A stretch of 64,000 bases of DNA, from NCBI GenBank assembly GCA_045540675.1, contig JAZQHQ010000001.1, positions 1,401 through 65,400 on the forward strand, given 5' to 3'. This DNA comes from Alistipes sp. (lineage in GTDB: Bacteria > Bacteroidota > Bacteroidia > Bacteroidales > Rikenellaceae). Of the stretch, positions 7,530 to 18,207 are shown one piece after another; the first letter of the stretch is position 1; the number at the start of each line of letters is the position of its first letter. The position numbers and the translations under genes are program-made. The notes below the pieces were generated by a model. That model worked only from the letters and a program-made list of their open reading frames with translations. It had not been told where the DNA came from and did not search any database.

Positions 7530-7589
7530 AGTTTAACACTTCGTGCGCATTCGCCTTACTACGAATCACGCCAAAGCGGTGCAAAGATA
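7530..7589 (-). promoter_or_regulatory. rpsO promoter (TATCTTTG) and hairpin 5' leader, possible S15 autoregulatory element
   Basis: -7 box at 7582-7589 on the minus strand; cgtg-attcg/cgaat-cacg hairpin in the leader. Confidence 0.5.
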
Positions 7590-7723
7590 CAAATAAAATT
7601 AAGAATTAAGAATTAAAAGTTAAGAATTTACACAAAAAATATAAAAATCAGCCGATTATGGCATTTTGAGGAGTGAAACGGGCGCGCTGTTTTGTACGAT
7701 TTTTGAATTATTTTGGTGGCAGA

Positions 7724-7798: not shown

Positions 7799-7872
7799 CG
7801 CGGGGTGGAGCAGCTGGTTAGCTTGCCGGGCTCATAACCCGGAGGTCGGAGGTTCGAGTCCTCCTCCCGCAA
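7799..7872 (+). tRNA. tRNA-Met(CAT), initiator (fMet) type
   Basis: Cloverleaf: acceptor CGCGGGG/TCCCGCA with C1:A72 mismatch, anticodon arm CCGGG-CTCATAA-CCCGG, T arm GGAGG-TTCGAGT-CCTCC; CCA not encoded. Confidence 0.97.
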
Positions 7873-9436
7873 CTAAACGAGACAAGTCGAAAGATTTGTC
7901 TCTTTTTTTATCTTTTTTATTTTTATAATTCACTGAAATAGTGCGTGTTATATCAAAGAACGAATTGGTGCTATTGGTTAGAAAACTTCTTTTTTCTTTA
8001 TCCCATTCAACACCCTTTGGAAAGACTAATTTTTGTATTTTTTGGCATACATCAAAGTCTTGTTTCTTCCAATAAACACCTAAATTACAAGCAATTACAA
8101 TAGTAGTCTCTATGTATTCGGCAAGGTTAGATAGATTTACGGATACTCTCTCCAACTCTGCCTCCGCTTTATGCTTATTTATCTCCAAATCTCTAATAAC
8201 TTCCAAATAGACATCTTTCTCGATTGCACCAATTGCATAGTTCTTTTTAGCACTCTTTATTTGGGTGGTTAAGGTTGCGATATTCTTCTTGATATTATCT
8301 ATATCGCTGATTTGTGTATGCGTTTTCTCTTCAAATTTCTTTTTTAAAACTATCGTCAATATAGGTAGCAATTCATTAGGTACAGCGAATCCATTGAGCA
8401 ATTCGGCATACTTTGAATGAATTTCCTTCGCTGACACATTTACGCTACCCTCCTTGCCACTATACTTATAATAATCCAAATCCTTCTTTTTAACAGTATA
8501 TCCTGATAGTGTATGCCCTAATGCGTGTATATGGTTTTTCAGCGGGAAACGAGGTGTTTCTGTCGCTTGCTCGTAACCTTTGTTGTTGCCCATAAGAATA
8601 CTTTGCACCTTCTCGAATAGTGCCTCGGAGATAAGAGGTTCTTGCTTCCCTTTTACAATCGCTCCTTTCAGCAGACTATGCTCAATTCTACCACAATAAA
8701 ACTGATTTTGTAGGCAGTTGGATAGTCTTTGTTTGCTAATATCCAGTCCTCTTAATTTTAATCTCTCTACAACCTTTGCTTGGGAAAGATTTGGTTCATT
8801 TGCAATCCATACCCAAGCATTTTTTAATATCTTGCCTTTGTCATTGACTGTTAATTTGTGTTCTTTATTTACCTTCTTGGAGTCATATCCAAGCGGTGGT
8901 TTGCTGTACCACTCGCCTCGGTTCAAACACGACACCATACCTTCGTAGCACTTATGCCTACGCATCGCATTATCAATATCTGCAATGATAAGTAGAATAG
9001 CAGATATTTGCTCTGACAGCACATTGCCCTCATCAATAGGTTGGTTTACAGATTTGATGATAACACCATTGCGTTTTAGTTGCCCTTTATATGTCAATCC
9101 CTCGTACATATTTCTGCTGAATCTATCATAGTCGAAAACAACTATTGTATCCACCTCTGGATCATTCATCACAGCACCTATCATTTCAAGAAAGTGCTCT
9201 CCTGCAACCTTCGCTGATTCAAATGTGCCACCAAAACAGTGCTTTACCTCTTTATTTAACGCTTCGCAGTAACCATTACAAGCGTCCATCTGCGTTTGAA
9301 TGGAGTGGTTCGTCTTAAACTGCTCCTCCGATGATACTCGTGTCCAAATTACTGCCTTGCCTTTACCACTCTTTGAAATAGCGAGTCTCTTTTCTACAAT
9401 CTTCTCAATACGAGTTTTCTTCTGTTTTTTAATCAT
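7832..9436 (-). CDS. Large serine recombinase (integrase); C-terminus runs antisense into the tRNA
   Basis: WTRVSSEEQ catalytic Ser, DRFSR, KPPLGY recombinase domain, NQFYCG, EPLISEALFEKVQ, coiled coil; ends RLVAGGGLEPPTSGL = reverse complement of the tRNA 3' half. Confidence 0.95.
   Translation of the reverse strand: MIKKQKKTRIEKIVEKRLAISKSGKGKAVIWTRVSSEEQFKTNHSIQTQMDACNGYCEALNKEVKHCFGGTFESAKVAGEHFLEMIGAVMNDPEVDTIVVFDYDRFSRNMYEGLTYKGQLKRNGVIIKSVNQPIDEGNVLSEQISAILLIIADIDNAMRRHKCYEGMVSCLNRGEWYSKPPLGYDSKKVNKEHKLTVNDKGKILKNAWVWIANEPNLSQAKVVERLKLRGLDISKQRLSNCLQNQFYCGRIEHSLLKGAIVKGKQEPLISEALFEKVQSILMGNNKGYEQATETPRFPLKNHIHALGHTLSGYTVKKKDLDYYKYSGKEGSVNVSAKEIHSKYAELLNGFAVPNELLPILTIVLKKKFEEKTHTQISDIDNIKKNIATLTTQIKSAKKNYAIGAIEKDVYLEVIRDLEINKHKAEAELERVSVNLSNLAEYIETTIVIACNLGVYWKKQDFDVCQKIQKLVFPKGVEWDKEKRSFLTNSTNSFFDITRTISVNYKNKKDKKRDKSFDLSRLVAGGGLEPPTSGL
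7879..7909 (+). terminator. Element-supplied terminator for the tRNA at attL
   Basis: gagacaagtc-GAAA-gatttgtctc 10-bp stem (one G-U) plus T7. Confidence 0.85.
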
Positions 9437-9599
9437 AAATTTCTTCGGTTTTCACTTTATTATTCTTGTACCACACATATCCGATTTCCGCTATTTCATC
9501 TAATCCATTAAGTATGGTTATTATATCGTCTTCGTTGGTTATCCCCAACTTGTTAAATTCTTCAATGTATCTATTTTCTAAATCATCTTTCAGAAACAT
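9429..9599 (-). CDS. 56-aa acidic protein translationally coupled to the LSR
   Basis: Manual translation MFLKDDLENRYIEEFNKLGITNEDDIITILNGLDEIAEIGYVWYKNNKVKTEEIYD; its stop overlaps the LSR start (ATGATTAA). Confidence 0.7.
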   Translation of the reverse strand: MFLKDDLENRYIEEFNKLGITNEDDIITILNGLDEIAEIGYVWYKNNKVKTEEIYD

Positions 9600-9845
9600 T
9601 ATTAAATTAGAACTTCGTGCTTTCGCACTCCCCTCGTTCTTCTTGATTTTGAGGTTGAGGGGTTATTCGCTTTCGCCTCCTACTCGGTTAATTGGTAGGT
9701 TTTCTGTTCGACAGGGGATATGCGCAAAACCCTTGTACCATATAGGCACAATAATCCTTCTCTATGGACTCATACTATTCTAAAATTTTTAATTGAAATA
9801 GGCGACAGAATCGTCTAACAAGAGCATTTCAACTCTCTTGCTGTG

Positions 9846-9853
9846 CAAATATA
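9846..9853 (-). promoter_or_regulatory. -7 promoter box upstream of the small ORF-LSR operon
   Basis: TATATTTG on the minus strand. Confidence 0.6.
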
Positions 9854-9886
9854 CCAAAAAATTTTGAATTTATAAACAGCTGGCTA

Positions 9887-10513
9887 CTAATTAGATAAAA
9901 TTTTCTGCAATTTTCTCAAAGTATTTACCGATGTTGAGGTTATTGCTTGTACATTTCTTAATGACAGTCCTTTTTTTAGCAACTGAATTTCTTTTTGGTA
10001 GTCTGTCTTCATTTGTTCGACTGATTTACGGTATCCCTCCTTTCTGCCTACCTTACCACCGCACTCTCTAAAATGGTTATAACCCGACTCCATTCTGCAA
10101 CGGATTAGACTTCTTTCCAAACTGTTGAACTGTGCAAGGATACCCATCACCAACTGCGCAATCGGATTGGGCTGTCCACTTGGTAGCAATGTTTCGAGTC
10201 CGTTCTGATGTATGTAAACAGATATTTTGCGATTTGTAAGATAATCTATCACACTCAGGAAGTCCACCGCTCGTCTTGAAAGACGGGAACACTCATAAAT
10301 TAAGACTTTATCTACCTTGTGATTTTCGGTAAAGGCGAGTAGTTTGGTTAATGCTTCACGCTCCTCAACCTTCTTGGCACCGCTTACCTTCTCGGTAAAC
10401 TCCGCCACCACCTCATACTCCATCTTCTGTGCATACTCTCGGAGTTCTGCCACTTGTCTATCAAATTCCTGAGTTTTGGTACTAACTCGTGCATATATCA
10501 CTACCTTTGTCAT
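9887..10513 (-). CDS. Small serine recombinase (resolvase/invertase family)
   Basis: IYARVST, SRLSR, C-terminal HTH (GLSLRNVQAITSTSVNTLRK). Confidence 0.95.
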   Translation of the reverse strand: MTKVVIYARVSTKTQEFDRQVAELREYAQKMEYEVVAEFTEKVSGAKKVEEREALTKLLAFTENHKVDKVLIYECSRLSRRAVDFLSVIDYLTNRKISVYIHQNGLETLLPSGQPNPIAQLVMGILAQFNSLERSLIRCRMESGYNHFRECGGKVGRKEGYRKSVEQMKTDYQKEIQLLKKGLSLRNVQAITSTSVNTLRKLQKILSN

Positions 10514-10654
10514 ATTGGTTATAGTTTAATTTTGTATGACAAAAATAATAATATATTATTAAATAAACAAATTTTATTAATATAATAATATGAATTAATT
10601 TGAATTTATTATGTATATGGTATTAAATAGGCAATTGACTTTTGCACCAACAAA

Positions 10655-10673
10655 AAAGGAGGCGTGTGCCTCC
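10655..10673 (-). terminator. Terminator after the 152-aa gene
   Basis: ggaggc-gtgt-gcctcc hairpin followed by T6 on the minus strand. Confidence 0.7.
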
Positions 10674-10698
10674 ACTTCAATCAAGACTGTGATAATCT

Positions 10699-11157
10699 TT
10701 ATAGTATCCTAAAATCAGGCCGATAACCTCTTTTGTATTCTGTTAGATGCTTAATTATCTCAGCATCTTTAATCATACAAGGAAGATCGTGCGTGAATTC
10801 AAGAATTATATCCTCTTTGGTTATTTGAAATGTCTTTCCTACAAGATAGTTGTGTAAAGGTGATGTAGAGTCTGTTACATTATCAGGAGCAACATCAATT
10901 GCTTTAATATCGTGTTTAGATGGCAATAACCTTATGACTATAAATTTTTCATTCTCTGCATTAAGTTTTGATAACTGACTTGATGCTATATCATACAAAA
11001 CACTAAAATCGTCACTCCTCACAACGCATACTGCATCATACTCAACTCCTTTATGTAATCCATCTTTTAAGATGCTATCCCTATTCTTGGCAGGTGTGAT
11101 ATGATAGAAAGGTAAATTTTTATCGATATATTCTTGTACTGTCATCGCTTTATTCAT
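10699..11157 (-). CDS. Putative ADP-ribosyltransferase-fold protein (Tpt1/KptA/DarT-like)
   Basis: FYHITPAKNRDSILKDGL (H-x-T...N..SIL..GL), AVCVV, FIVIRL, ITKEDII spaced like ART core strands. Confidence 0.6.
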   Translation of the reverse strand: MNKAMTVQEYIDKNLPFYHITPAKNRDSILKDGLHKGVEYDAVCVVRSDDFSVLYDIASSQLSKLNAENEKFIVIRLLPSKHDIKAIDVAPDNVTDSTSPLHNYLVGKTFQITKEDIILEFTHDLPCMIKDAEIIKHLTEYKRGYRPDFRIL

Positions 11158-11407
11158 TCTCTTTGGGTATATATATTAATACAAATACACTTTTTTGTAT
11201 CTCTAATGAACATTTGACATCTTGTTCATTTGTATATTCAATATGGCAATATGCCTGAGATTTTATGTTGTTATTTTCGTCTTTGTAAATTTTGTTGTAC
11301 TCTTTGATAAGATATACTTCCATTGGTAGATTAAAAATTTCGATAATATCTTTCTCAATAGATAGGTATTCATTAGTAGGTTTGCGATAAAATTTTTGTA
11401 GTCCCAT
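11150..11407 (-). CDS. 85-aa hypothetical protein coupled to the ART-like gene
   Basis: ATG start, 8-bp overlap with the next gene (ATGAATAA). Confidence 0.65.
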   Translation of the reverse strand: MGLQKFYRKPTNEYLSIEKDIIEIFNLPMEVYLIKEYNKIYKDENNNIKSQAYCHIEYTNEQDVKCSLEIQKSVFVLIYIPKENE

Positions 11408-11443
11408 AATTGTAAAAGGTTTAGTGGCTAATAAATAATTTTA

Positions 11444-11470
11444 AGGTTGGTGGCGGGAAACCACCAACCT
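11444..11470. other. Perfect 10-bp hairpin downstream of the lectin gene
   Basis: aggttggtgg-cgggaaa-ccaccaacct; no U-tract in the gene direction. Confidence 0.7.
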
Positions 11471-11499
11471 GATTGTTAAATAGATAAATAGTTAAATTG

Positions 11500-14400
11500 T
11501 TAAAAAGCGAGGACAGCACGCACAGATATTTTGTAACCCTTAGTAGCGTAACCGTCTGAAATACCAAAACTGAAATTGACACCGCAAGCGTTGTTGCTAT
11601 TGTATTCAGTAGATGACCAATAATCTTCTGTCCCGAAAGCGGTATATCCATTTGTAGAGAGAATTGAGTTTATGGTTGATTTATTATTGTAAATCGTATA
11701 TAATTCATTAAACGCAGGAAGATACCAATCCGTACCATAATCTGAACACCACTTAAATGCAGGATATTTAGTTTCCCAAGATGATAATGCTTTAATTATT
11801 GCCATATTAGTAGTTCCATTATCACTGTCTATCGCTGAGGTTGTAATCCCTGATGTACTCCACTTCAAAGATGAACCTTCGGCAACAGACACCATCTTGC
11901 CCGCATTATATGGAGTCTTTTCGATATATACAACACCAAGTCCTGTGGTATCAAGTTTCTTTGTAGAAGAAAGGTTTGCATTGAATAACTCTACGCCTTT
12001 AAGTGCTGTATTTGAAGTTAGGTCAATATCGGTAATTGCCAAACCTGATGCAACCAACACTTCAAGCAGTGTATTGTACTTTGTATCAACCACCGAAATT
12101 TCAGCGTTGTTACTTATATTAAGATATGTAAGCGCAGTGTTGTTACGGATATTGAGTGTCAAGAGGAGATTGTTTGCAATATCGAACTCCTGCAAAGCTG
12201 CATTTGCCGTAACATCGATTTTTCGCAGTTGGTTATTGTTGCAGTAGAACTTCACAAGCGAGGCGTTGTCCGATACATCGATAGAGGAGAGTCTATTGTT
12301 GTTTGCATTAATCTCTGTAAGTTTTTTGTTATTGGATAAGTCGAGAGATCTAAGGCGATTAAACGAGCAGTTTAACTTTTCGAGGTTGGTAAAATACTCG
12401 ATACCCGCAAGCGAGGTTGTCTGTGGCATAAGTCCCATAATGTCAATCTCGGTGATGTTCTCTGCCTCTGCCAACGAAATTTCGCTATCAGCATCGGTAT
12501 CAAACTTCTCGACAAGATATGCCTTGAAATTTACATCAGGAATATAGACTGTATTGGTTGTCCAAGGCACCATATTTACATAGTCGGAAGTTAAACAGTT
12601 GTAACCATTCGATACCTCCAAGCGCACATTTGCAGAGATTTCGTTACGGAAGAATCCCTCTTCGAGGTTTGTACCCGTGGCAACTACGGTCAAGATACCA
12701 TCTTTTGCCGATGCGCCCACAACAGTGAGGTTTACAAATTCGCCTACTGCAGCACGGGTTTGAGCATAGACGGCCTTAACGCTCAACGCATCTTCCCAAA
12801 CTTCAACCAACTCCTCGGCAACAGCAGCAGGACGCACCTCATATTTAAGGGTTGCACTGCCTGCGGTGATTGTGCCATTGTTCTCGGTGTAGTACATTGT
12901 TGCCTTGCAATCCGAAAACTCAGGAACAAAACTCAACGACTGAATGCGCTCGATAAGGGCAGCAATCTGCTCCTGCATCTCGGCGATATCTGCTTGCATA
13001 TTGTAAATGGTGAGTTTGATAGTCTTAACCTCTTGTTCCAAAGCTGTAACACGAGCATCGAGAGCATCTATTGTAGCGTTAATAGTTGCCACTTCGTTGT
13101 CTATACGGGTATTGATGGTTGTAACCTCCGTAGCGATAGCATCACGGAGTTGTCCATTCAAGGTGTTGATGGCGGTTTTGATTGCCTCCTTGTATGCTTC
13201 GGTAATCTCAGCAGCGGTGTTGTTGAGTTCACTTCTCAATTGTGCAATAGAGGCGGTGTTTTCGGAAATCGCCTGTGCGTTATTGCCAATAGCGGTTGCA
13301 TTGGCAGAGATAAGGGCAGCATTCTTGGCAATCTCCTCTGCGTTCTTGGCAATGGTGCGAGTGTTGGTATCTACATTTGATTGCAAAGAGGTAATTGCAC
13401 TCTTATTGCTGTTGATAAGAGTCTCGTTTGCCTCGATAAGAGATTTATTCTCGTCAATCTTTTGGCTGTTGCCCTCTATGTCTTCGCTATTCTCTGCAAT
13501 TGCCTGCGCATTGGCAGTTATCTTGGTGGCATTGTTTGAAATCTGCTCTGCATTATCCGCAATGGCGAGTTTATGTGTTGCAATTTCGCCCTGTGCTGAT
13601 GATAAATCTTCACGCAAAGCATCTATCAACTCCTTGTTGTCTGAGATATTCTTGGTGAGTTGCTCCGAGAGTTCGCTGATAAGATTTTCAAGATATGCCT
13701 TCTGTGCTTCGAGTTTGCTATTGAACTCCTGCATAATGTCGGCAAGCATCTGATTAACCTCCTGCATAGTGTAGTAACCTGCGAGTTGGTTATTAACCCA
13801 CTGTTGCATCTTTGTCTCCGAAGCGGAAATAGCATCTTTGATTGCTTGTGTATATGCTGCCTCAACCTCCTCCTTTGCTGCCGATATAGCATCTGTATAT
13901 GCTTTGGTAATCTCTGTTACCTTCTGTTGGATATTCTTGTTCAAGGTTGATACTGCCGCCTCGATATCCTCCTTAATTTTGGTGTTAAGGCGAGTTTCAA
14001 GGGCGGTAAGACTCTTGTTGATTGACTCTATCTGCGTCTTGATACTTGCGACTTCTGCTGACAATTCATTATGTTTTTCGAGAGTTGCAAAGGTTTGAGA
14101 CACCCAATCCTTTGTACTCTGAATTTCGCCATTGACATAACTCTCCAAATCGTTGATTTTATCCTCCAATGCCCTGTCCTTATTCTGTAAAGAGGTGATA
14201 GCATCGTTGATTTGTGCTAACTCGCCCTCCAATTCCGACTTTACAGATGCAAGTTGTGCCAACACATCAGATTTTGCAGTTGAAATGTTGTTTTTCAACT
14301 CCTTCTCAATACTTTCAATCTCTTTGTTTGTCAGTTCGATTGATTTTTGAAGATTACTTGCAGTGGACTGCAAATTCTCGATGTACCCTTTCAACTCCTT

Positions 14401-14583
14401 GTCTGTTTTTTTCAATTCGGGCAAAGTAGCATTGATTGCATTTACCTGCTCTTGGAGCGATGCGATTTGGGTGTTTTCAATCTCGTCAAGACGATTGTTG
14501 ATATCATCAATCGCCTCTTCAAACTTTTTGCAACTTGGCAACATCATTGCCACGACTGCAACTAACAAAAATAGTTTCTTCAT
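11500..14583 (-). CDS. Surface lipoprotein: long coiled coil, beta domain with TRA motif, LRR, C-terminal DUF1566/C-type-lectin-like domain
   Basis: MKKLFLLVAVVAMMLPSC lipobox; heptad repeats; FDTDADSEISLAEA cap then LxxLxCxxNxLxxLDLS repeats; WYLPAFNEL and YWSSTE...VRAVLAF. Confidence 0.85.
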   Translation of the reverse strand: MKKLFLLVAVVAMMLPSCKKFEEAIDDINNRLDEIENTQIASLQEQVNAINATLPELKKTDKELKGYIENLQSTASNLQKSIELTNKEIESIEKELKNNISTAKSDVLAQLASVKSELEGELAQINDAITSLQNKDRALEDKINDLESYVNGEIQSTKDWVSQTFATLEKHNELSAEVASIKTQIESINKSLTALETRLNTKIKEDIEAAVSTLNKNIQQKVTEITKAYTDAISAAKEEVEAAYTQAIKDAISASETKMQQWVNNQLAGYYTMQEVNQMLADIMQEFNSKLEAQKAYLENLISELSEQLTKNISDNKELIDALREDLSSAQGEIATHKLAIADNAEQISNNATKITANAQAIAENSEDIEGNSQKIDENKSLIEANETLINSNKSAITSLQSNVDTNTRTIAKNAEEIAKNAALISANATAIGNNAQAISENTASIAQLRSELNNTAAEITEAYKEAIKTAINTLNGQLRDAIATEVTTINTRIDNEVATINATIDALDARVTALEQEVKTIKLTIYNMQADIAEMQEQIAALIERIQSLSFVPEFSDCKATMYYTENNGTITAGSATLKYEVRPAAVAEELVEVWEDALSVKAVYAQTRAAVGEFVNLTVVGASAKDGILTVVATGTNLEEGFFRNEISANVRLEVSNGYNCLTSDYVNMVPWTTNTVYIPDVNFKAYLVEKFDTDADSEISLAEAENITEIDIMGLMPQTTSLAGIEYFTNLEKLNCSFNRLRSLDLSNNKKLTEINANNNRLSSIDVSDNASLVKFYCNNNQLRKIDVTANAALQEFDIANNLLLTLNIRNNTALTYLNISNNAEISVVDTKYNTLLEVLVASGLAITDIDLTSNTALKGVELFNANLSSTKKLDTTGLGVVYIEKTPYNAGKMVSVAEGSSLKWSTSGITTSAIDSDNGTTNMAIIKALSSWETKYPAFKWCSDYGTDWYLPAFNELYTIYNNKSTINSILSTNGYTAFGTEDYWSSTEYNSNNACGVNFSFGISDGYATKGYKISVRAVLAF

Positions 14584-14673
14584 AACAGTAAAGTATTAAA
14601 AATTAAACAATTATTAAAATGTTCGTTCTGTTATGACAATAAAGAAAGTGTGGAGAAACACTGTTCGTCTATC

Positions 14674-14894
14674 AATCTGATGGTTCTGACAAAACCTTGA
14701 CAACAATAAACGATGCGATACCCCACACCCGTAATATGCAGAATAGGGTTGCAGAATGCTCCCAACCATACATATACAAGAAATGAGTGCTATTCGTTGT
14801 CCTGTTGTCGTAAAAACTGTCAGATTTTCAGATTAGGACTGCAAAAAACACTTTCAATATGTCCGTCAATCTATTGATTGACAAGGCAAATATA
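14674..14894 (-). promoter_or_regulatory. Promoter (TATATTTG at 14887-14894) and long structured 5' leader of the lipoprotein gene
   Basis: Interrupted inverted repeat 14674-14834 (blocks aatctga, tctgaca, gacaaca, aacga) plus gtcaatc-tatt-gattgac hairpin. Confidence 0.6.
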
Positions 14895-14983
14895 AGCATT
14901 TTTTGTTTCAATGTTCTCTAAAAGAGAAACTTTTTGAATAGCACTCTGTGAAGTATCGCTCTAAATGATACAAAAAGTGAAGG

Positions 14984-15313
14984 TTAAAACACCTTCACAA
15001 TTGACTCCCAACGGAAACTACGCCACGCTGATTTTTCAATGTCAAAATAGGCGGTGGTGGAGTAAATTTCACGACTAACACCCCTACCGTTGGTATATTT
15101 GTAGGCAAGAGTGGCATTTGTTGTTCCCCACGCCTCACGGATCTCTCCGTTCTTCTTGATGTAAAGGAAGTGTCCCACACCTGTACGAAGTTTATGCTTC
15201 AAATTCTCAATCATCATCGCCTTTGCCCCTGCAACAAGGAGATTTTGAGTGCGCTGAGCAATTACATTCATTCGTACTGCTGTTGTGTCTGTTATAATCA
15301 ATGCGTTTGTCAT
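14984..15313 (-). CDS. SH3 beta-barrel / WYL_2 (DUF2693)-like protein
   Basis: FLYIKKNGEIREAWGT...YFDIEKSAWRSF pattern; likely start MTNAL at 15313. Confidence 0.75.
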   Translation of the reverse strand: MTNALIITDTTAVRMNVIAQRTQNLLVAGAKAMMIENLKHKLRTGVGHFLYIKKNGEIREAWGTTNATLAYKYTNGRGVSREIYSTTAYFDIEKSAWRSFRWESIVKVF

Positions 15314-15354
15314 AGTGTAAGATTTTTTATTACAGTTAGTTAAAATTTTAATTC

Positions 15355-15519
15355 TTAATACCAAGTTGAAGGTTTAGTCCAACCCTCCAATTCATACCAA
15401 GCATCGAGCGCTGCATATCTGCTGCGACCAAAACTTGCAACCTTATTGCCCGTTGCAATCTCCCATACGCCCCAACCACTGCCTGAGCAACCAATCTGAT
15501 ATTTTCTCTCTCGTGCCAT
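15355..15519 (-). CDS. 54-aa Trp/Gly-rich small protein
   Basis: Manual translation MARERKYQIGCSGSGWGVWEIATGNKVASFGRSRYAALDAWYELEGWTKPSTWY; -7 box at 15553-15560. Confidence 0.7.
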   Translation of the reverse strand: MARERKYQIGCSGSGWGVWEIATGNKVASFGRSRYAALDAWYELEGWTKPSTWY

Positions 15520-15552
15520 ATTTTATTAATATCATATCCATTATTTCTACTA

Positions 15553-15652
15553 CAAAGATAAAACTTTATTATTAATAATCCAAATTATTTTAACATTTTA
15601 TTTTAATTTTATCTAAATAATTTAACATTCTGATATTTATTTTCTATCTTTG
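15553..15652. promoter_or_regulatory. Divergent promoter pair
   Basis: TATCTTTG on the minus strand (15553-15560) and plus strand (15645-15652); repeated tttaacatt between them. Confidence 0.7.
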
Positions 15653-15671
15653 TCTAAAATTTTGGGATAGT

Positions 15672-15965
15672 ATGGCAAAACTACGAGTAAAGCAGATTGT
15701 AAAGGAGAAGGGTTTAACATTGGCAAAAGTGGCTGAGATGTTGGAAATCCACCCTGTAAATTTAAGTACCACCCTCAACGGTAATCCAACCATCGCAACA
15801 TTGGAGAAGATTGCAAATGTATTGGGAGTAGATGTTACCGACTTAATTGAAACCGAGAACAAACCTATTGTAAGTGGTTTTGTAAAGGTTGATGGAGAGG
15901 TTATTGAAATCACTTCTGTTGCCGATTTGGAACAGGCATTGAATAAGGCAAAGGAGTTGAAGTAA
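15672..15965 (+). CDS. XRE-family helix-turn-helix regulator
   Basis: KGLTLAKVAEMLEIHPVNLSTTLNGNPTIATLEKIANVLGV. Confidence 0.92.
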   Translation: MAKLRVKQIVKEKGLTLAKVAEMLEIHPVNLSTTLNGNPTIATLEKIANVLGVDVTDLIETENKPIVSGFVKVDGEVIEITSVADLEQALNKAKELK

Positions 15966-16184
15966 TGCCCTTCAATTTTTGATACTTTTTAGGTATCAAT
16001 TTTTGAAATAATTAACTGATAGTTTTTAATCATTTTTTGATTAAATTCTGTCAGTTTTTTTGTTTTTAACATTACTGATAATACTCTACTTTTCTTTGAA
16101 AAATAATTGCACCATATTTCAATATCTATCTTTTTATTTTTCAGTTTGATAGTCTTAAAATATATGCAGTGATAAGGGTGGTTA

Positions 16185-17033
16185 CTATCTTATGCTACCA
16201 CTACACAATATATCTTTCCAAAGTAGTCGCTTTCTACCTCTTCGAAATCTTATTACCCTACTAAGAGCATCGTGGAAAATATCTGTTAGGACTTCTCTGT
16301 TGAATAGTAAATTTGATTCATCTTCGCTTTCAAACCGTTTGAGATAATCGTAATTCAACCGAACTTCAAGACGGTGCAAAGATTTGGGACTGCCGTAGAA
16401 CTCTGTTACATAAGATTTGTGCGAACTCTCCTTTATCTCTGCCAACTTGTTGTATGCACATACATATATCCCATTCCTCTTATTTTGCACTGCTTCTCTC
16501 TGACAGCAGTAGAAAGTAGGATCCTTTAACCTATCAAGAGTAACCTTGTATGTGATATGCAGTTCAGGAATACTCTTTTTTCTATCGTATATCTCTTTAC
16601 CATTGACGATAGTTGCGACACTCTTATCCTTGTATAACTTGCGAATGGTGTATACAAAGTTCTTTTTACTATCCGTTGCCAAGTCTAACGATGTGATATT
16701 GTTGTAGGTTAGATTTAAGGTGCTTTTTAACTCTCTTAATATATCTGCCAAGTTGCTCTCATATAGCAATCTGTTATCAATCTTTAACCAAATATAACTA
16801 CTGTCATCATCTCCATATCGCCCAAAATAAATATGCCCACAATCCTTGTCATATAACAATACACGGAAATAGTATTGAAAGTGCAACCCCGATATTCTAA
16901 TTATAGAAAATTCTCCAACCTCAATCCGCTCGCCAATGCCGACACAGCGAAGTGCTTCTAATGTTTCAGGTTGTGCTATGTAACACAACCTTACTCCATC
17001 AATAATCACCTTACCCAACTTTTCATTGCTCAT
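16185..17033 (-). CDS. Rep_trans-like rolling-circle initiator / MOB_T-type relaxase
   Basis: ITSLDLATD, YNKLAE and RLEVRL motifs in Rep_trans order; likely start MSNEK at 17033 overlapping the upstream ORF. Confidence 0.65.
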   Translation of the reverse strand: MSNEKLGKVIIDGVRLCYIAQPETLEALRCVGIGERIEVGEFSIIRISGLHFQYYFRVLLYDKDCGHIYFGRYGDDDSSYIWLKIDNRLLYESNLADILRELKSTLNLTYNNITSLDLATDSKKNFVYTIRKLYKDKSVATIVNGKEIYDRKKSIPELHITYKVTLDRLKDPTFYCCQREAVQNKRNGIYVCAYNKLAEIKESSHKSYVTEFYGSPKSLHRLEVRLNYDYLKRFESEDESNLLFNREVLTDIFHDALSRVIRFRRGRKRLLWKDILCSGSIR

Positions 17034-17223
17034 CACTTTTAGAAGATTTGACACTATTATTGTCATTCCCATATTTGGAAGGGATTGAGTCCCACACACG
17101 CTTTAATGATTGGGATAGGTGCTGACGATGCCAATAACTTTTTTTCTTACCTTTAAGACTTTGACTGATTTTCATCTTTACAGAGTCATCAAGTTCTCTG
17201 TATTTGCGTTTATATTCACTCAT
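17023..17223 (-). CDS. 66-aa basic protein with NUMOD3-like repeats
   Basis: SVKMKISQSLKGKKKSYWHRQHLSQSLK. Confidence 0.7.
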   Translation of the reverse strand: MSEYKRKYRELDDSVKMKISQSLKGKKKSYWHRQHLSQSLKRVWDSIPSKYGNDNNSVKSSKSDEQ

Positions 17224-17567
17224 AATTTTATAAAGCAGGGATTTTTATTTCCTGTCATATATAAATATGGTAGCAAAAGTAAAAAAGTAAAGTATAGTAG
17301 AAACTTTTTGAAAAAATAGTTACTTAAATTTTTAGTAACAGACAACAAGTTCTTACTATTCCTCCTACTTTACCCATTAATTTTAAGGCGGGATACGCCT
17401 GAGTAACTAATTGATAGATAGTCCTATATCATAGGTAGATATTAGTCTATTTTTGAAAATAAACTTTGTCAAACAAAGTGGGATAAATTGGGTAAAAGAA
17501 GGGAAAATCTGTTTTTATAGACAATGCTCGAATAAAAGATAATCTTTTAAGTTAAAATAGTACAGGC

Positions 17568-17591
17568 AGAGGGAGGTTTTCGCCTCCCTCT
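17568..17591. other. 9-bp perfect hairpin near the right end of the element
   Basis: agagggagg-ttttcg-cctccctct. Confidence 0.65.
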
Positions 17592-17633
17592 ATTGATTAA
17601 AAAGTACGATAATTAAATTGATACATCAACGCC

Positions 17634-17720
17634 TTATTCAATCTTATTGTACCACTTCCAAAAGGCAATTACTAAGTCGTAATCAATTAAGAAACGGTTA
17701 GATAAGTTGATTGTTTGTTC
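17634..17720 (-). other. Detached alternative 3' end of the LSR gene (attP arm)
   Basis: In frame with the LSR across the shared core: EQTINLSNRFLIDYDLVIAFWKWYNKIE*. Confidence 0.75.
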
Positions 17721-18080
17721 AACTAAAAGAGAATAGTCGCCTATTCTCTTTTTTTGTTGCGCTCGGAGGCTCGGTCAGTCGGTGGCGTCTCGGCAAACTT
17801 GTCTGCGAGTTATGCGATAGTAGTTGTTGCTACGCAACTACGATAACAGATTAAAAATCAATAGTTCAAATAAATTTGACTACTGCTTTTCAATCTATTC
17901 TCGAAACTTTCAGTTTAACTCCTATCGCATATCTCTCCGGTCTGCTCTCAACTGCTGCGACCGTTCGAGTCCAATTTACAATGAAATGGTTAGACAGGTT
18001 GTTTGTTCAACTAAAAGGGGTTAATCGAATGATTGTCTCTCTTTTTTTGTTGCGTTCGGAGGCTCGGTCAGTCGGTGGCG
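17691..18080 (+). repeat. Two imperfect ~95-bp direct repeats (attR-like), 288 bp apart
   Basis: gaaa(c/t)ggttaga...gtttgttcaactaaaa...tttttttgttgcg(c/t)tcggaggctcggtcagtcggtggc at about 17691-17785 and 17983-18078. Confidence 0.85.
17728..17755 (+). terminator. Terminator right of attR (probable pre-insertion tRNA terminator)
   Basis: agagaatag-tcgc-ctattctct plus T-run. Confidence 0.8.
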
Positions 18081-18207
18081 GTGTGGCAGAGTTGTCTTTG
18101 CTATTGGCTAACTAAAAACGCTTGCGCCGAAAATAATTCTTAATTTTTAATTCTTAATTCTTAATTATATTTGTATTTTTGCAAAAAATATAAATAAAGG
18201 TATAGCA

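Follow-up and report, generated by a model that had tools for sequence, protein, structure and literature searches.

The window is a stretch of 64,000 nucleotides from the genome of Alistipes sp. (NCBI GenBank assembly GCA_045540675.1, contig JAZQHQ010000001.1, positions 1,401 to 65,400 of the forward strand), and the features at the locus are listed in Table 1, together with the basis on which each was assigned. The central feature is the open reading frame (ORF) of a predicted lipoprotein, which runs in order through a lipobox signal peptide (MKKLFLLVAVVAMMLPSC), a coiled-coil stalk of ~520 aa, a beta domain and leucine-rich repeats (LRR) to a C-terminal DUF1566/Lcl_C head, and whose C-terminal residues before the stop codon are YWSSTEYNSNNACGVNFSFGISDGYATKGYKISVRAVLAF. 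We infer that this protein is a lipid-anchored fibre, exposed at the cell surface, with a ligand-binding head. The last 39 codons of the gene, at the end of the DUF1566/Lcl_C domain, make up a hypervariable patch.

Table 1. Features of the locus, with positions in the window.
Feature	Position	Strand	Basis
tRNA-Met, island integration site	7799..7873	+	ARAGORN
Large serine recombinase, 3' end overlapping the tRNA	7832..9436	-	Pfam Resolvase and Recombinase
Low-GC integrated island, 10.28 kb, with the lipoprotein gene as cargo	7883..18164	.	GC profile; empty site in G001 (L163)
Small serine recombinase, resolvase/invertase type	9887..10513	-	Pfam Resolvase, 110.8 bits
Terminator-like hairpin GGTTGGTGG-N7-CCACCAACC, then a T/A run	11445..11469	-	Kept at the orthologous position in L001, L006, L120, L121 and G117
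AT-rich motif past the stop codon, CAATTTAACTATTTATCTATTTAACAAT	11472..11499	-	Flank comparison
Predicted surface lipoprotein gene, intact 1027-aa ORF	11500..14583	-	ORF list; Pfam LRR_4, Lcl_C and coiled-coil families
Conserved 21-mer GTGCGTGCTGTCCTCGCTTTT (VRAVLAF), IMH-like 3' end	11503..11523	-	Comparison with DGR TRs, paralogues and relatives
DGR-type variable-region homologue, W989-F1027, 39 codons	11503..11619	-	Alignment with TRs and VRs of the G262 and G043 DGRs
Predicted C-type-lectin-like DUF1566/Lcl_C domain, about aa 895-1027	11503..11901	-	Pfam, family alignment, AF2 and Foldseek

Lectin-like head and mobile island

The Pfam match to Lcl_C/DUF1566, at aa 947-1024, scored 34.2 bits, just under the cut-off of 34.9. 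A family alignment of 33 sequences, in which the scaffold KYPAFKWC...WYLP...YWSSTE was invariant, was used as the input for an AlphaFold (AF2) model of aa 872-1027, and a mean pLDDT of 88 was obtained. When this model was searched with Foldseek, the top PDB match was 8q4e, the C-terminal domain of Legionella Lcl (E 2.7e-5), followed by the Bacteroides fimbrial tip protein 4eps and then by many C-type lectin-like proteins; a PDB sequence search gave one weak match alone, again 4eps (E 0.089), and the fold search told more. The C-terminal domain is thus modelled as C-type-lectin-like (DUF1566/Lcl_C) and ends in the variable patch. An earlier reading of the locus made from the sequence alone (the sequence-only reading) had placed the YWSSTE...VRAVLAF end on a C-type-lectin scaffold, and Pfam, the AF2 model and Foldseek all agree with that placement.

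In the closest relative (G001, locus L163), the positions equivalent to 7882 and 18165 of the window are joined with 37 nt between them. Because this relative has an empty site, the intervening segment is a 10.28-kb insertion directly 3' of tRNA-Met, and it has a serine recombinase at the end next to the tRNA. Carriage of the gene on a mobile element, which the sequence-only reading had assumed, is borne out by this comparison. Besides the recombinases and the lipoprotein gene, the island encodes a WYL_2 protein and has two further short ORFs of 152 aa and 85 aa. An invertase-driven shufflon, an idea that came from the adjacent small serine recombinase, was rejected, as no inverted copies of the 3' cassette were found within the island.

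Complete retroelements in the genus and their likeness to the patch

[quoted passage not shown] The 78 loci encoding relatives of the protein were scanned for repeat pairs with mismatches confined to one base, and one clean pair was obtained, in a locus (L008) of the Alistipes MAG JAZOND01 (G262, contig G262:C23), where 115-nt repeats lie at 1444-1558 (the template repeat, TR) and at 763-877 (the variable region, VR, at the gene end). This cis VR differed from the TR at 21-22 positions, 21 of which were TR adenines. The cassette consists of a DUF1566 target ending in WSSSEGSSNGAYGVDFSDGSDDSYYKSINSAVRAVLALD, a 114-aa ORF assigned by its position in the cassette as the putative Avd, the TR, which encodes WSSSENNNNNAYNINFSNGNDNNNNKNNNNAVRAVLAF, and an RT (L008, 1332-2729) with an ORF that continues through the TR. 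Two other contigs of this MAG have gene ends that also fit this TR, with 17/17 and 21/21 mismatches at adenines, respectively, and the DGR clade therefore uses remote targets. A fourth copy, the paralogue L014, showed 22 adenine and 9 non-adenine mismatches to the TR, and decayed or non-cognate paralogues thus stand beside active ones in G262. A second complete DGR was found in G043 (G043:C57, L122/L132), in which a target and an Avd homologue of 120 aa accompany the RT and a TR that encodes WSSTENNSNNAYKLNFSNGNSNNNNKNNTNNVRAILAF, and here all of the mismatches between the cis VR and the TR (18/18) were at adenines.

The TRs and VRs of both DGRs can be aligned with the patch of the window along some 117 nt, which makes the patch homologous to a bona fide VR/TR family. 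Compared with the nearest TR (that of G043), the patch was changed at 22/44 adenine sites and at 11/70 other sites (Fisher p=1.2e-4, odds ratio 5.4), and it has one extra codon. At 50%, the share of altered adenine sites resembles that of the true cis VRs (18/44 and 21/43), and the codons of the window that face AAY codons in the G043 TR alignment were NNY in 14 of 15 cases. The patch has 28 A in its 117 nt, an adenine content that sets it with the true cis VRs and apart from the TRs. Its non-adenine mismatches are explained by divergence between TRs, since the G262 and G043 TRs themselves differ at 8/64 sites that are non-A in both. Taken against G262 and G043 together, the patch shows 11-16 non-adenine differences plus one codon, and has no cassette. 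On these alignments it very probably arose by mutagenic retrohoming, from a template of the same clade other than the two TRs sampled.

The codon bias within the patch was recounted at codons 994-1020 (YNSNNACGVNFSFGISDGYATKGYKIS), and T or C at the third position (Y3) was found in 23/27 codons, the number that the sequence-only reading had given. The corresponding background was 54% in the remaining gene and 56% genome-wide, and the binomial p value of 23/27 against the gene background was 7e-4. From the amino acids alone, 19.5/27 would be expected, and given the amino acids the p value rose to about 0.04. Most of the excess therefore follows from amino-acid composition, because codons for N, Y, F, D and C and the AGY codons for Ser must end in T or C, and such an ending is forced by the encoded amino acid in about half of the 27 codons. 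The Y3 bias is real, but it is mainly a composition skewed to N, Y, S, F, D and C, which is what an AAY-rich template would itself produce.

The 21-mer at the 3' end of the patch was identical in the 3' end of the G262 TR and in a paralogue of the own genome (on C69), matched at 20/21 nt in the G262 cis VR and was nearly identical in the G043 DGR. The VRAV codons differ at synonymous sites among 62 family members, and the exact 21-mer is therefore the mark of a subgroup, not of the whole family. That it is kept perfectly despite such variation could mean that selection on it as a homing site persists. The AT-rich motif past the stop codon is also present at the cis targets of both complete DGRs and at many orphan paralogues, and it was ruled out as a required DGR recognition element, since a working remote VR (L013) is without it.

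These observations bear on a very unlikely alternative, according to which no DGR ever diversified the patch. It would then be a ligand-binding loop, hypervariable by nature, in a large family of DUF1566 paralogues, and both its conserved VRAVLAF end and its richness in N/Y/S/G would have come from the family ancestor and have been shaped by selection and by recombination between paralogues. The homology to TRs at the nucleotide level, where the changes cluster at TR adenines, the NNY pattern of the AAY-aligned codons, the adenine count and the identity of the 21-mer with that of a working TR all speak against this alternative, while the very large size of the family in Alistipes, where most members have no nearby DGR, and the reduced Y3 excess once amino acids are conditioned on speak for it. 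Selection on ligand-binding loops could also yield part of the signal without a DGR, because the adenine-site bias overlaps the positions of hypervariable residues. On balance, the assignment of a DGR-type variable region by the sequence-only reading is well supported by the homology to the TRs and VRs of two complete DGRs, by the 21-nt 3' end and by the combined adenine-site and NNY signature.

Search for a cognate template, RT and Avd

The own genome is a MAG of 1.9 Mb in 92 contigs, about 90% complete. The sequence-only reading had reported no RT, Avd or TR in the window; this holds and extends to the whole assembly. With Pfam RVT_1 (PF00078), 0 matches were obtained in the own MAG while control genomes scored; a tblastn search with the RT and the Avd of L008 gave no match in the own genome; and a protein search for the RT core gave matches in 69/376 genus genomes and 0 in the own genome. 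By short-word BLAST of the patch against the own genome, no TR-like repeat was detected, and the matches were confined to conserved 3' ends, those of the paralogues on C69 and C24.

An exact IUPAC pattern, in which each position was either the VR base or A, was used as the representation of the hypothesis that the TR equals the VR except where the TR has A; the cognate TR of the patch would thus take the form WRRWMAWMWAMWRAAWAM...GTGCGTGCTGTCCTCGCTTT. In the own genome, the sole match to this pattern was the patch itself. No match was obtained with a 68-nt version in IMG/VR and the GTDB species representatives, or with one of 41 nt in the JGI metagenomes and the GTDB representatives. Across the 376 genus genomes no cognate TR was found, and the nearest TR had 11 non-A mismatches plus a codon indel. 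The search of genomes and metagenomes for a TR differing at adenines only, which the sequence-only reading had proposed as a check, therefore returned none from the own MAG, the genus genomes, the GTDB representatives, IMG/VR or the JGI metagenomes.

For the comparison of template lengths, 30 genus RT loci and the 18 closest RT proteins of a large collection were inspected, and homologous TRs were found in the G262 and G043 types alone, neither of which is cognate. Of 12 TR peptides (10 from the closest RT proteins, together with those of G262 and G043), 11 place 6 codons between a conserved G and K, against 7 in the window, and P0051, the remaining one, is spaced differently again. A TR peptide of the window's length was thus found in 0/12 cases, every sampled TR differing by one codon or more. 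The gene ends of closest homology, in G081, G095 and G043, are likewise one codon shorter than that of the window. No DGR-type RT was detected in the six genomes with the closest relatives of the gene (G376, G377, G378, G081, G095 and G117), the RT search in G376 giving a 33-bit partial match at most, and a DNA match to the patch or to its end occurs in 18 further genomes of the genus, of which G043 and G262 alone carry an RT of this clade. The own genome has four C-termini of the family (C1, C24, C68 and C69), whose variable parts differ in length and sequence, so that a single TR could not serve all four.

DGR cassettes assemble and bin poorly. For this reason, and because the MAG is about 90% complete and in 92 contigs, absence of an RT and a TR from the assembly is not proof of their absence from the cell. 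An unlikely alternative to a frozen patch is accordingly that the patch is an active remote target, still being rewritten in trans by a cognate DGR of the same cell that is missing from the MAG, whether unbinned, unassembled or carried on a co-resident phage or integrative element (ICE). Incompleteness of the MAG would allow for this, the gene is intact, a working TR ends in the identical 21-mer, and remote targets on other contigs were demonstrated for the clade in G262 and are known from elsewhere (PMC5758913). What weighs on the other side is that the cognate TR was in none of the collections searched, that the length of the patch is unlike that of every sampled TR and that the six related genomes with homologous genes are also without an RT; in addition, the gene was assembled cleanly within a 66-kb contig, which argues weakly against strong heterogeneity within the sample.

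The sequence-only reading had left open whether the patch is a remote target borrowing a DGR in trans or an orphan frozen variant. The evidence leans to the orphan and makes the remote target less likely, on four grounds: the collections searched yielded no cognate TR, none of the sampled TRs has the length of the patch, an RT is lacking in the six genomes with the closest gene relatives, and one TR could not account for all four C-termini of the own genome. The intact ORF counts against a frozen orphan. With this point weighed, we regard it as probable, short of strongly so, that the patch is an orphan, frozen, DGR-written variable tip on a mobile island.

Head exchange among relatives and the likely history of the patch

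Among the relatives of the island, variation was found to consist in the exchange of the whole LRR-lectin head, not in change limited to the VR. The first 2309 nt of the gene are 93% and 92% identical between the window and L001 and L002, respectively, with the high-identity block of L001 extending upstream to 16006, and the C-terminal part is 69-76% identical to that of these two loci. L001 and L002 themselves share 92% identity over the first 3915 nt and 68% in the lectin domain. G117 is 96% identical to the window over 879 nt downstream of the gene (10648-11523), 70.6% identical with indels in the head and 81% identical in the N-terminal part. The high-identity block of G117 begins exactly at GTGCGTGCTGTCCTCGC, and the conserved 21-mer is therefore also a recombination junction, the 3' breakpoint of a head swap. 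One and the same 21-mer is thus the end of the G262 TR and a breakpoint of recombination between paralogues, and its role as a homing site is putative. In a collection of 15 billion proteins there was no near-identical allele, the full protein being a singleton 90% cluster, and the best match to the last 330 aa was 63% identical. Exchange of whole heads among island alleles, with no change limited to the VR, is also what would be expected if the patch had never been DGR-diversified, and it is to be set against the adenine-site evidence given above.

A frozen orphan would have the following history. In the past, a TR of the Alistipes 'WSSTENNSNNAYKLNFSNGN...NNVRAVLAF' clade would have been copied into cDNA in which template adenines gave rise to random bases, and by mutagenic retrohoming this cDNA would have overwritten the patch as far as the conserved 21 nt at its 3' end. 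The gene would have travelled as cargo of the 10.3-kb island, for whose integration at tRNA-Met a serine recombinase would be responsible. As the assembled genome holds no cognate template, RT or Avd, the patch is now most likely a frozen orphan that would evolve by ordinary mutation, while related islands would vary through recombinational exchange of the entire LRR-lectin head. Retrohoming in the past and inactivity at present are in this way our inference from the alignments and the searches.

A further reading, quite unlikely in our estimate, is that the lipoprotein is kept as a retrohoming-competent 'docking' target. Any DGR of the clade that entered the cell could then overwrite the head, the same end would anchor head swaps between islands, and target and diversifier, each mobile on its own, would meet only transiently. 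This reading is suggested by the retention of both the exact 21-nt TR-type 3' end and the 5' WSSTE homology of the Alistipes DGR clade, and a transient meeting would explain why targets occur without an RT in most genomes.

As an immediate result, a VR of a known class without its machinery is ordinary; it is mildly unusual that the target alone is mobile and that an end resembling a homing site doubles as the breakpoint of head swaps. To our knowledge, DGR surveys count VRs only with a cognate TR. With the present case there is further evidence that many genes of gut Bacteroidota resemble DGR targets whose diversifier is absent. If such orphans stay homeable, the spread of a DGR between strains could instantly reprogramme existing adhesins; if they are no longer homeable, they are fossils by which past DGR activity could be dated.

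Among the known systems, VRs of category 'd' (CLec2) overlap DUF1566, DUF823 or Fib_succ_major and account for 14% of DGRs, the Legionella lipoprotein LdtA being an example, and non-adjacent or remote targets are documented and are defined by adenine-only differences from the TR (Wu et al. 2018, PMC5758913). The patch of the window has the fold and the homology of CLec2, but it lacks the cognate TR and the RT in the genome by which a target is assigned; it works as a CLec2 DGR target would and very probably descends from one, but cannot be filed under any known DGR.

LdtA of Legionella pneumophila is alike in being a surface lipoprotein with a DUF1566-type lectin fold whose last ~40 codons are the VR, and in the logic of an N-rich TR with a VRAV-type end. 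It adjoins its own TR, Avd and RT, whereas none was found in the genome of the window gene, whose protein is much larger (with its coiled-coil stalk and LRR) and which rides a serine-recombinase island. The DGR of Treponema denticola (TvpA) is the precedent for one TR with dispersed targets in trans, a behaviour shown above for the Alistipes G262 DGR too; the remote targets of Treponema fit their TR except at adenines, whereas the patch fits no sampled TR in this way, and the fold of TvpA is an FGE-type lectin where the head of the window is of the DUF1566 type. The G262 and G043 DGRs share with the window the genus, the VR/TR family, the KYPAFKWC...WYLP...YWSSTE scaffold and a similar AT-rich motif after the stop codon. 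The DGR-diversified tip adhesins of Bacteroides type V pili (bioRxiv 10.1101/2024.11.15.621889) are alike in coming from gut Bacteroidota, in having a lectin-like adhesive tip and in their link to mobile elements, and the fold match of the window head to Bacteroides fimbrial 4eps points to the same likeness with pilus tips. In the Bacteroides case the whole DGR and its target are carried on an ICE, whereas in the window the target alone is carried on the island.

RT matches and the complete DGR of a yak-gut Alistipes MAG

RT matches at E<=1e-10 were found in 69 of the 376 genus genomes, and strong DGR-type matches in roughly 50 of the 376. Among the RT-matching genomes, an RT clade with a TR homologous to the variable patch of the window lipoprotein was found in only two. 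A complete DGR was located in a yak-gut Alistipes MAG (G262), where at least three VRs, spread over three contigs, are served by a single TR, and the mismatches between this TR and these VRs are confined to adenines. A fourth VR copy is decayed. The TR is read in frame by the RT ORF, and therefore the TR peptide stands at the N-terminus of the predicted RT proteins.

Head exchange and sequences 3' of the lipoprotein gene

Comparison with L001, L002 and L166 (G117:C15) shows that related islands exchange the lipoprotein's entire LRR-lectin head (window 11503-12303). The 5' breakpoints fall near window 12275-12303, while the conserved 21-mer encoding VRAVLAF marks the exact 3' breakpoint. The interval from stalk to head is about 1.4 kb longer in the relatives than in the window lipoprotein. 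Downstream of the lipoprotein gene are two small ORFs, overlapping by 8 nt, and a Pfam search of them (window 10648-11499 region) returned no match for either. G117 DNA is 96% identical over both ORFs, the adjacent lipoprotein head being far less conserved.

An AT-rich motif, TTAACTATTTA(A/T)C(T/G/A)ATTTAA, lies 3' of the stop codon in many members of the lipoprotein family, and the cis target of each complete DGR (G262 and G043) is among them; the working remote VR at L013 is without it.

Coordinates of the features
Feature	Location	Remark
Complete DGR	L008 1-2729	G262:C23
G262 DGR repeat copy	L012 6047-6157	
G262 DGR repeat copy	L013 1483-1597	
G262 DGR repeat copy	L014 9440-9554	decayed VR
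Small ORF	window 10699-11157	152 aa
Small ORF	window 11150-11407	85 aa
AT-rich motif	window 11472-11499	
AT-rich motif	L008 880-915	
AT-rich motif	L122 about 1690-1725	
AT-rich motif	own C69	paralogue contig
Tandem duplicate	window 17711-17804; 17999-18097	unit ~90 nt
Inverted repeat	window 7580-7628; 18135-18183	49 nt

Repeats at the island ends

The island's right end carries a tandem duplicate, with copies that are 86-88% identical and spaced 288-293 nt; this duplicate may represent a second att-like junction. The arms of the inverted repeat, built from AATTAAGAATT-type units, are 94% complementary; the left arm lies outside the island, about 170 nt upstream of tRNA-Met, and the right arm spans the right junction (18164/18165).
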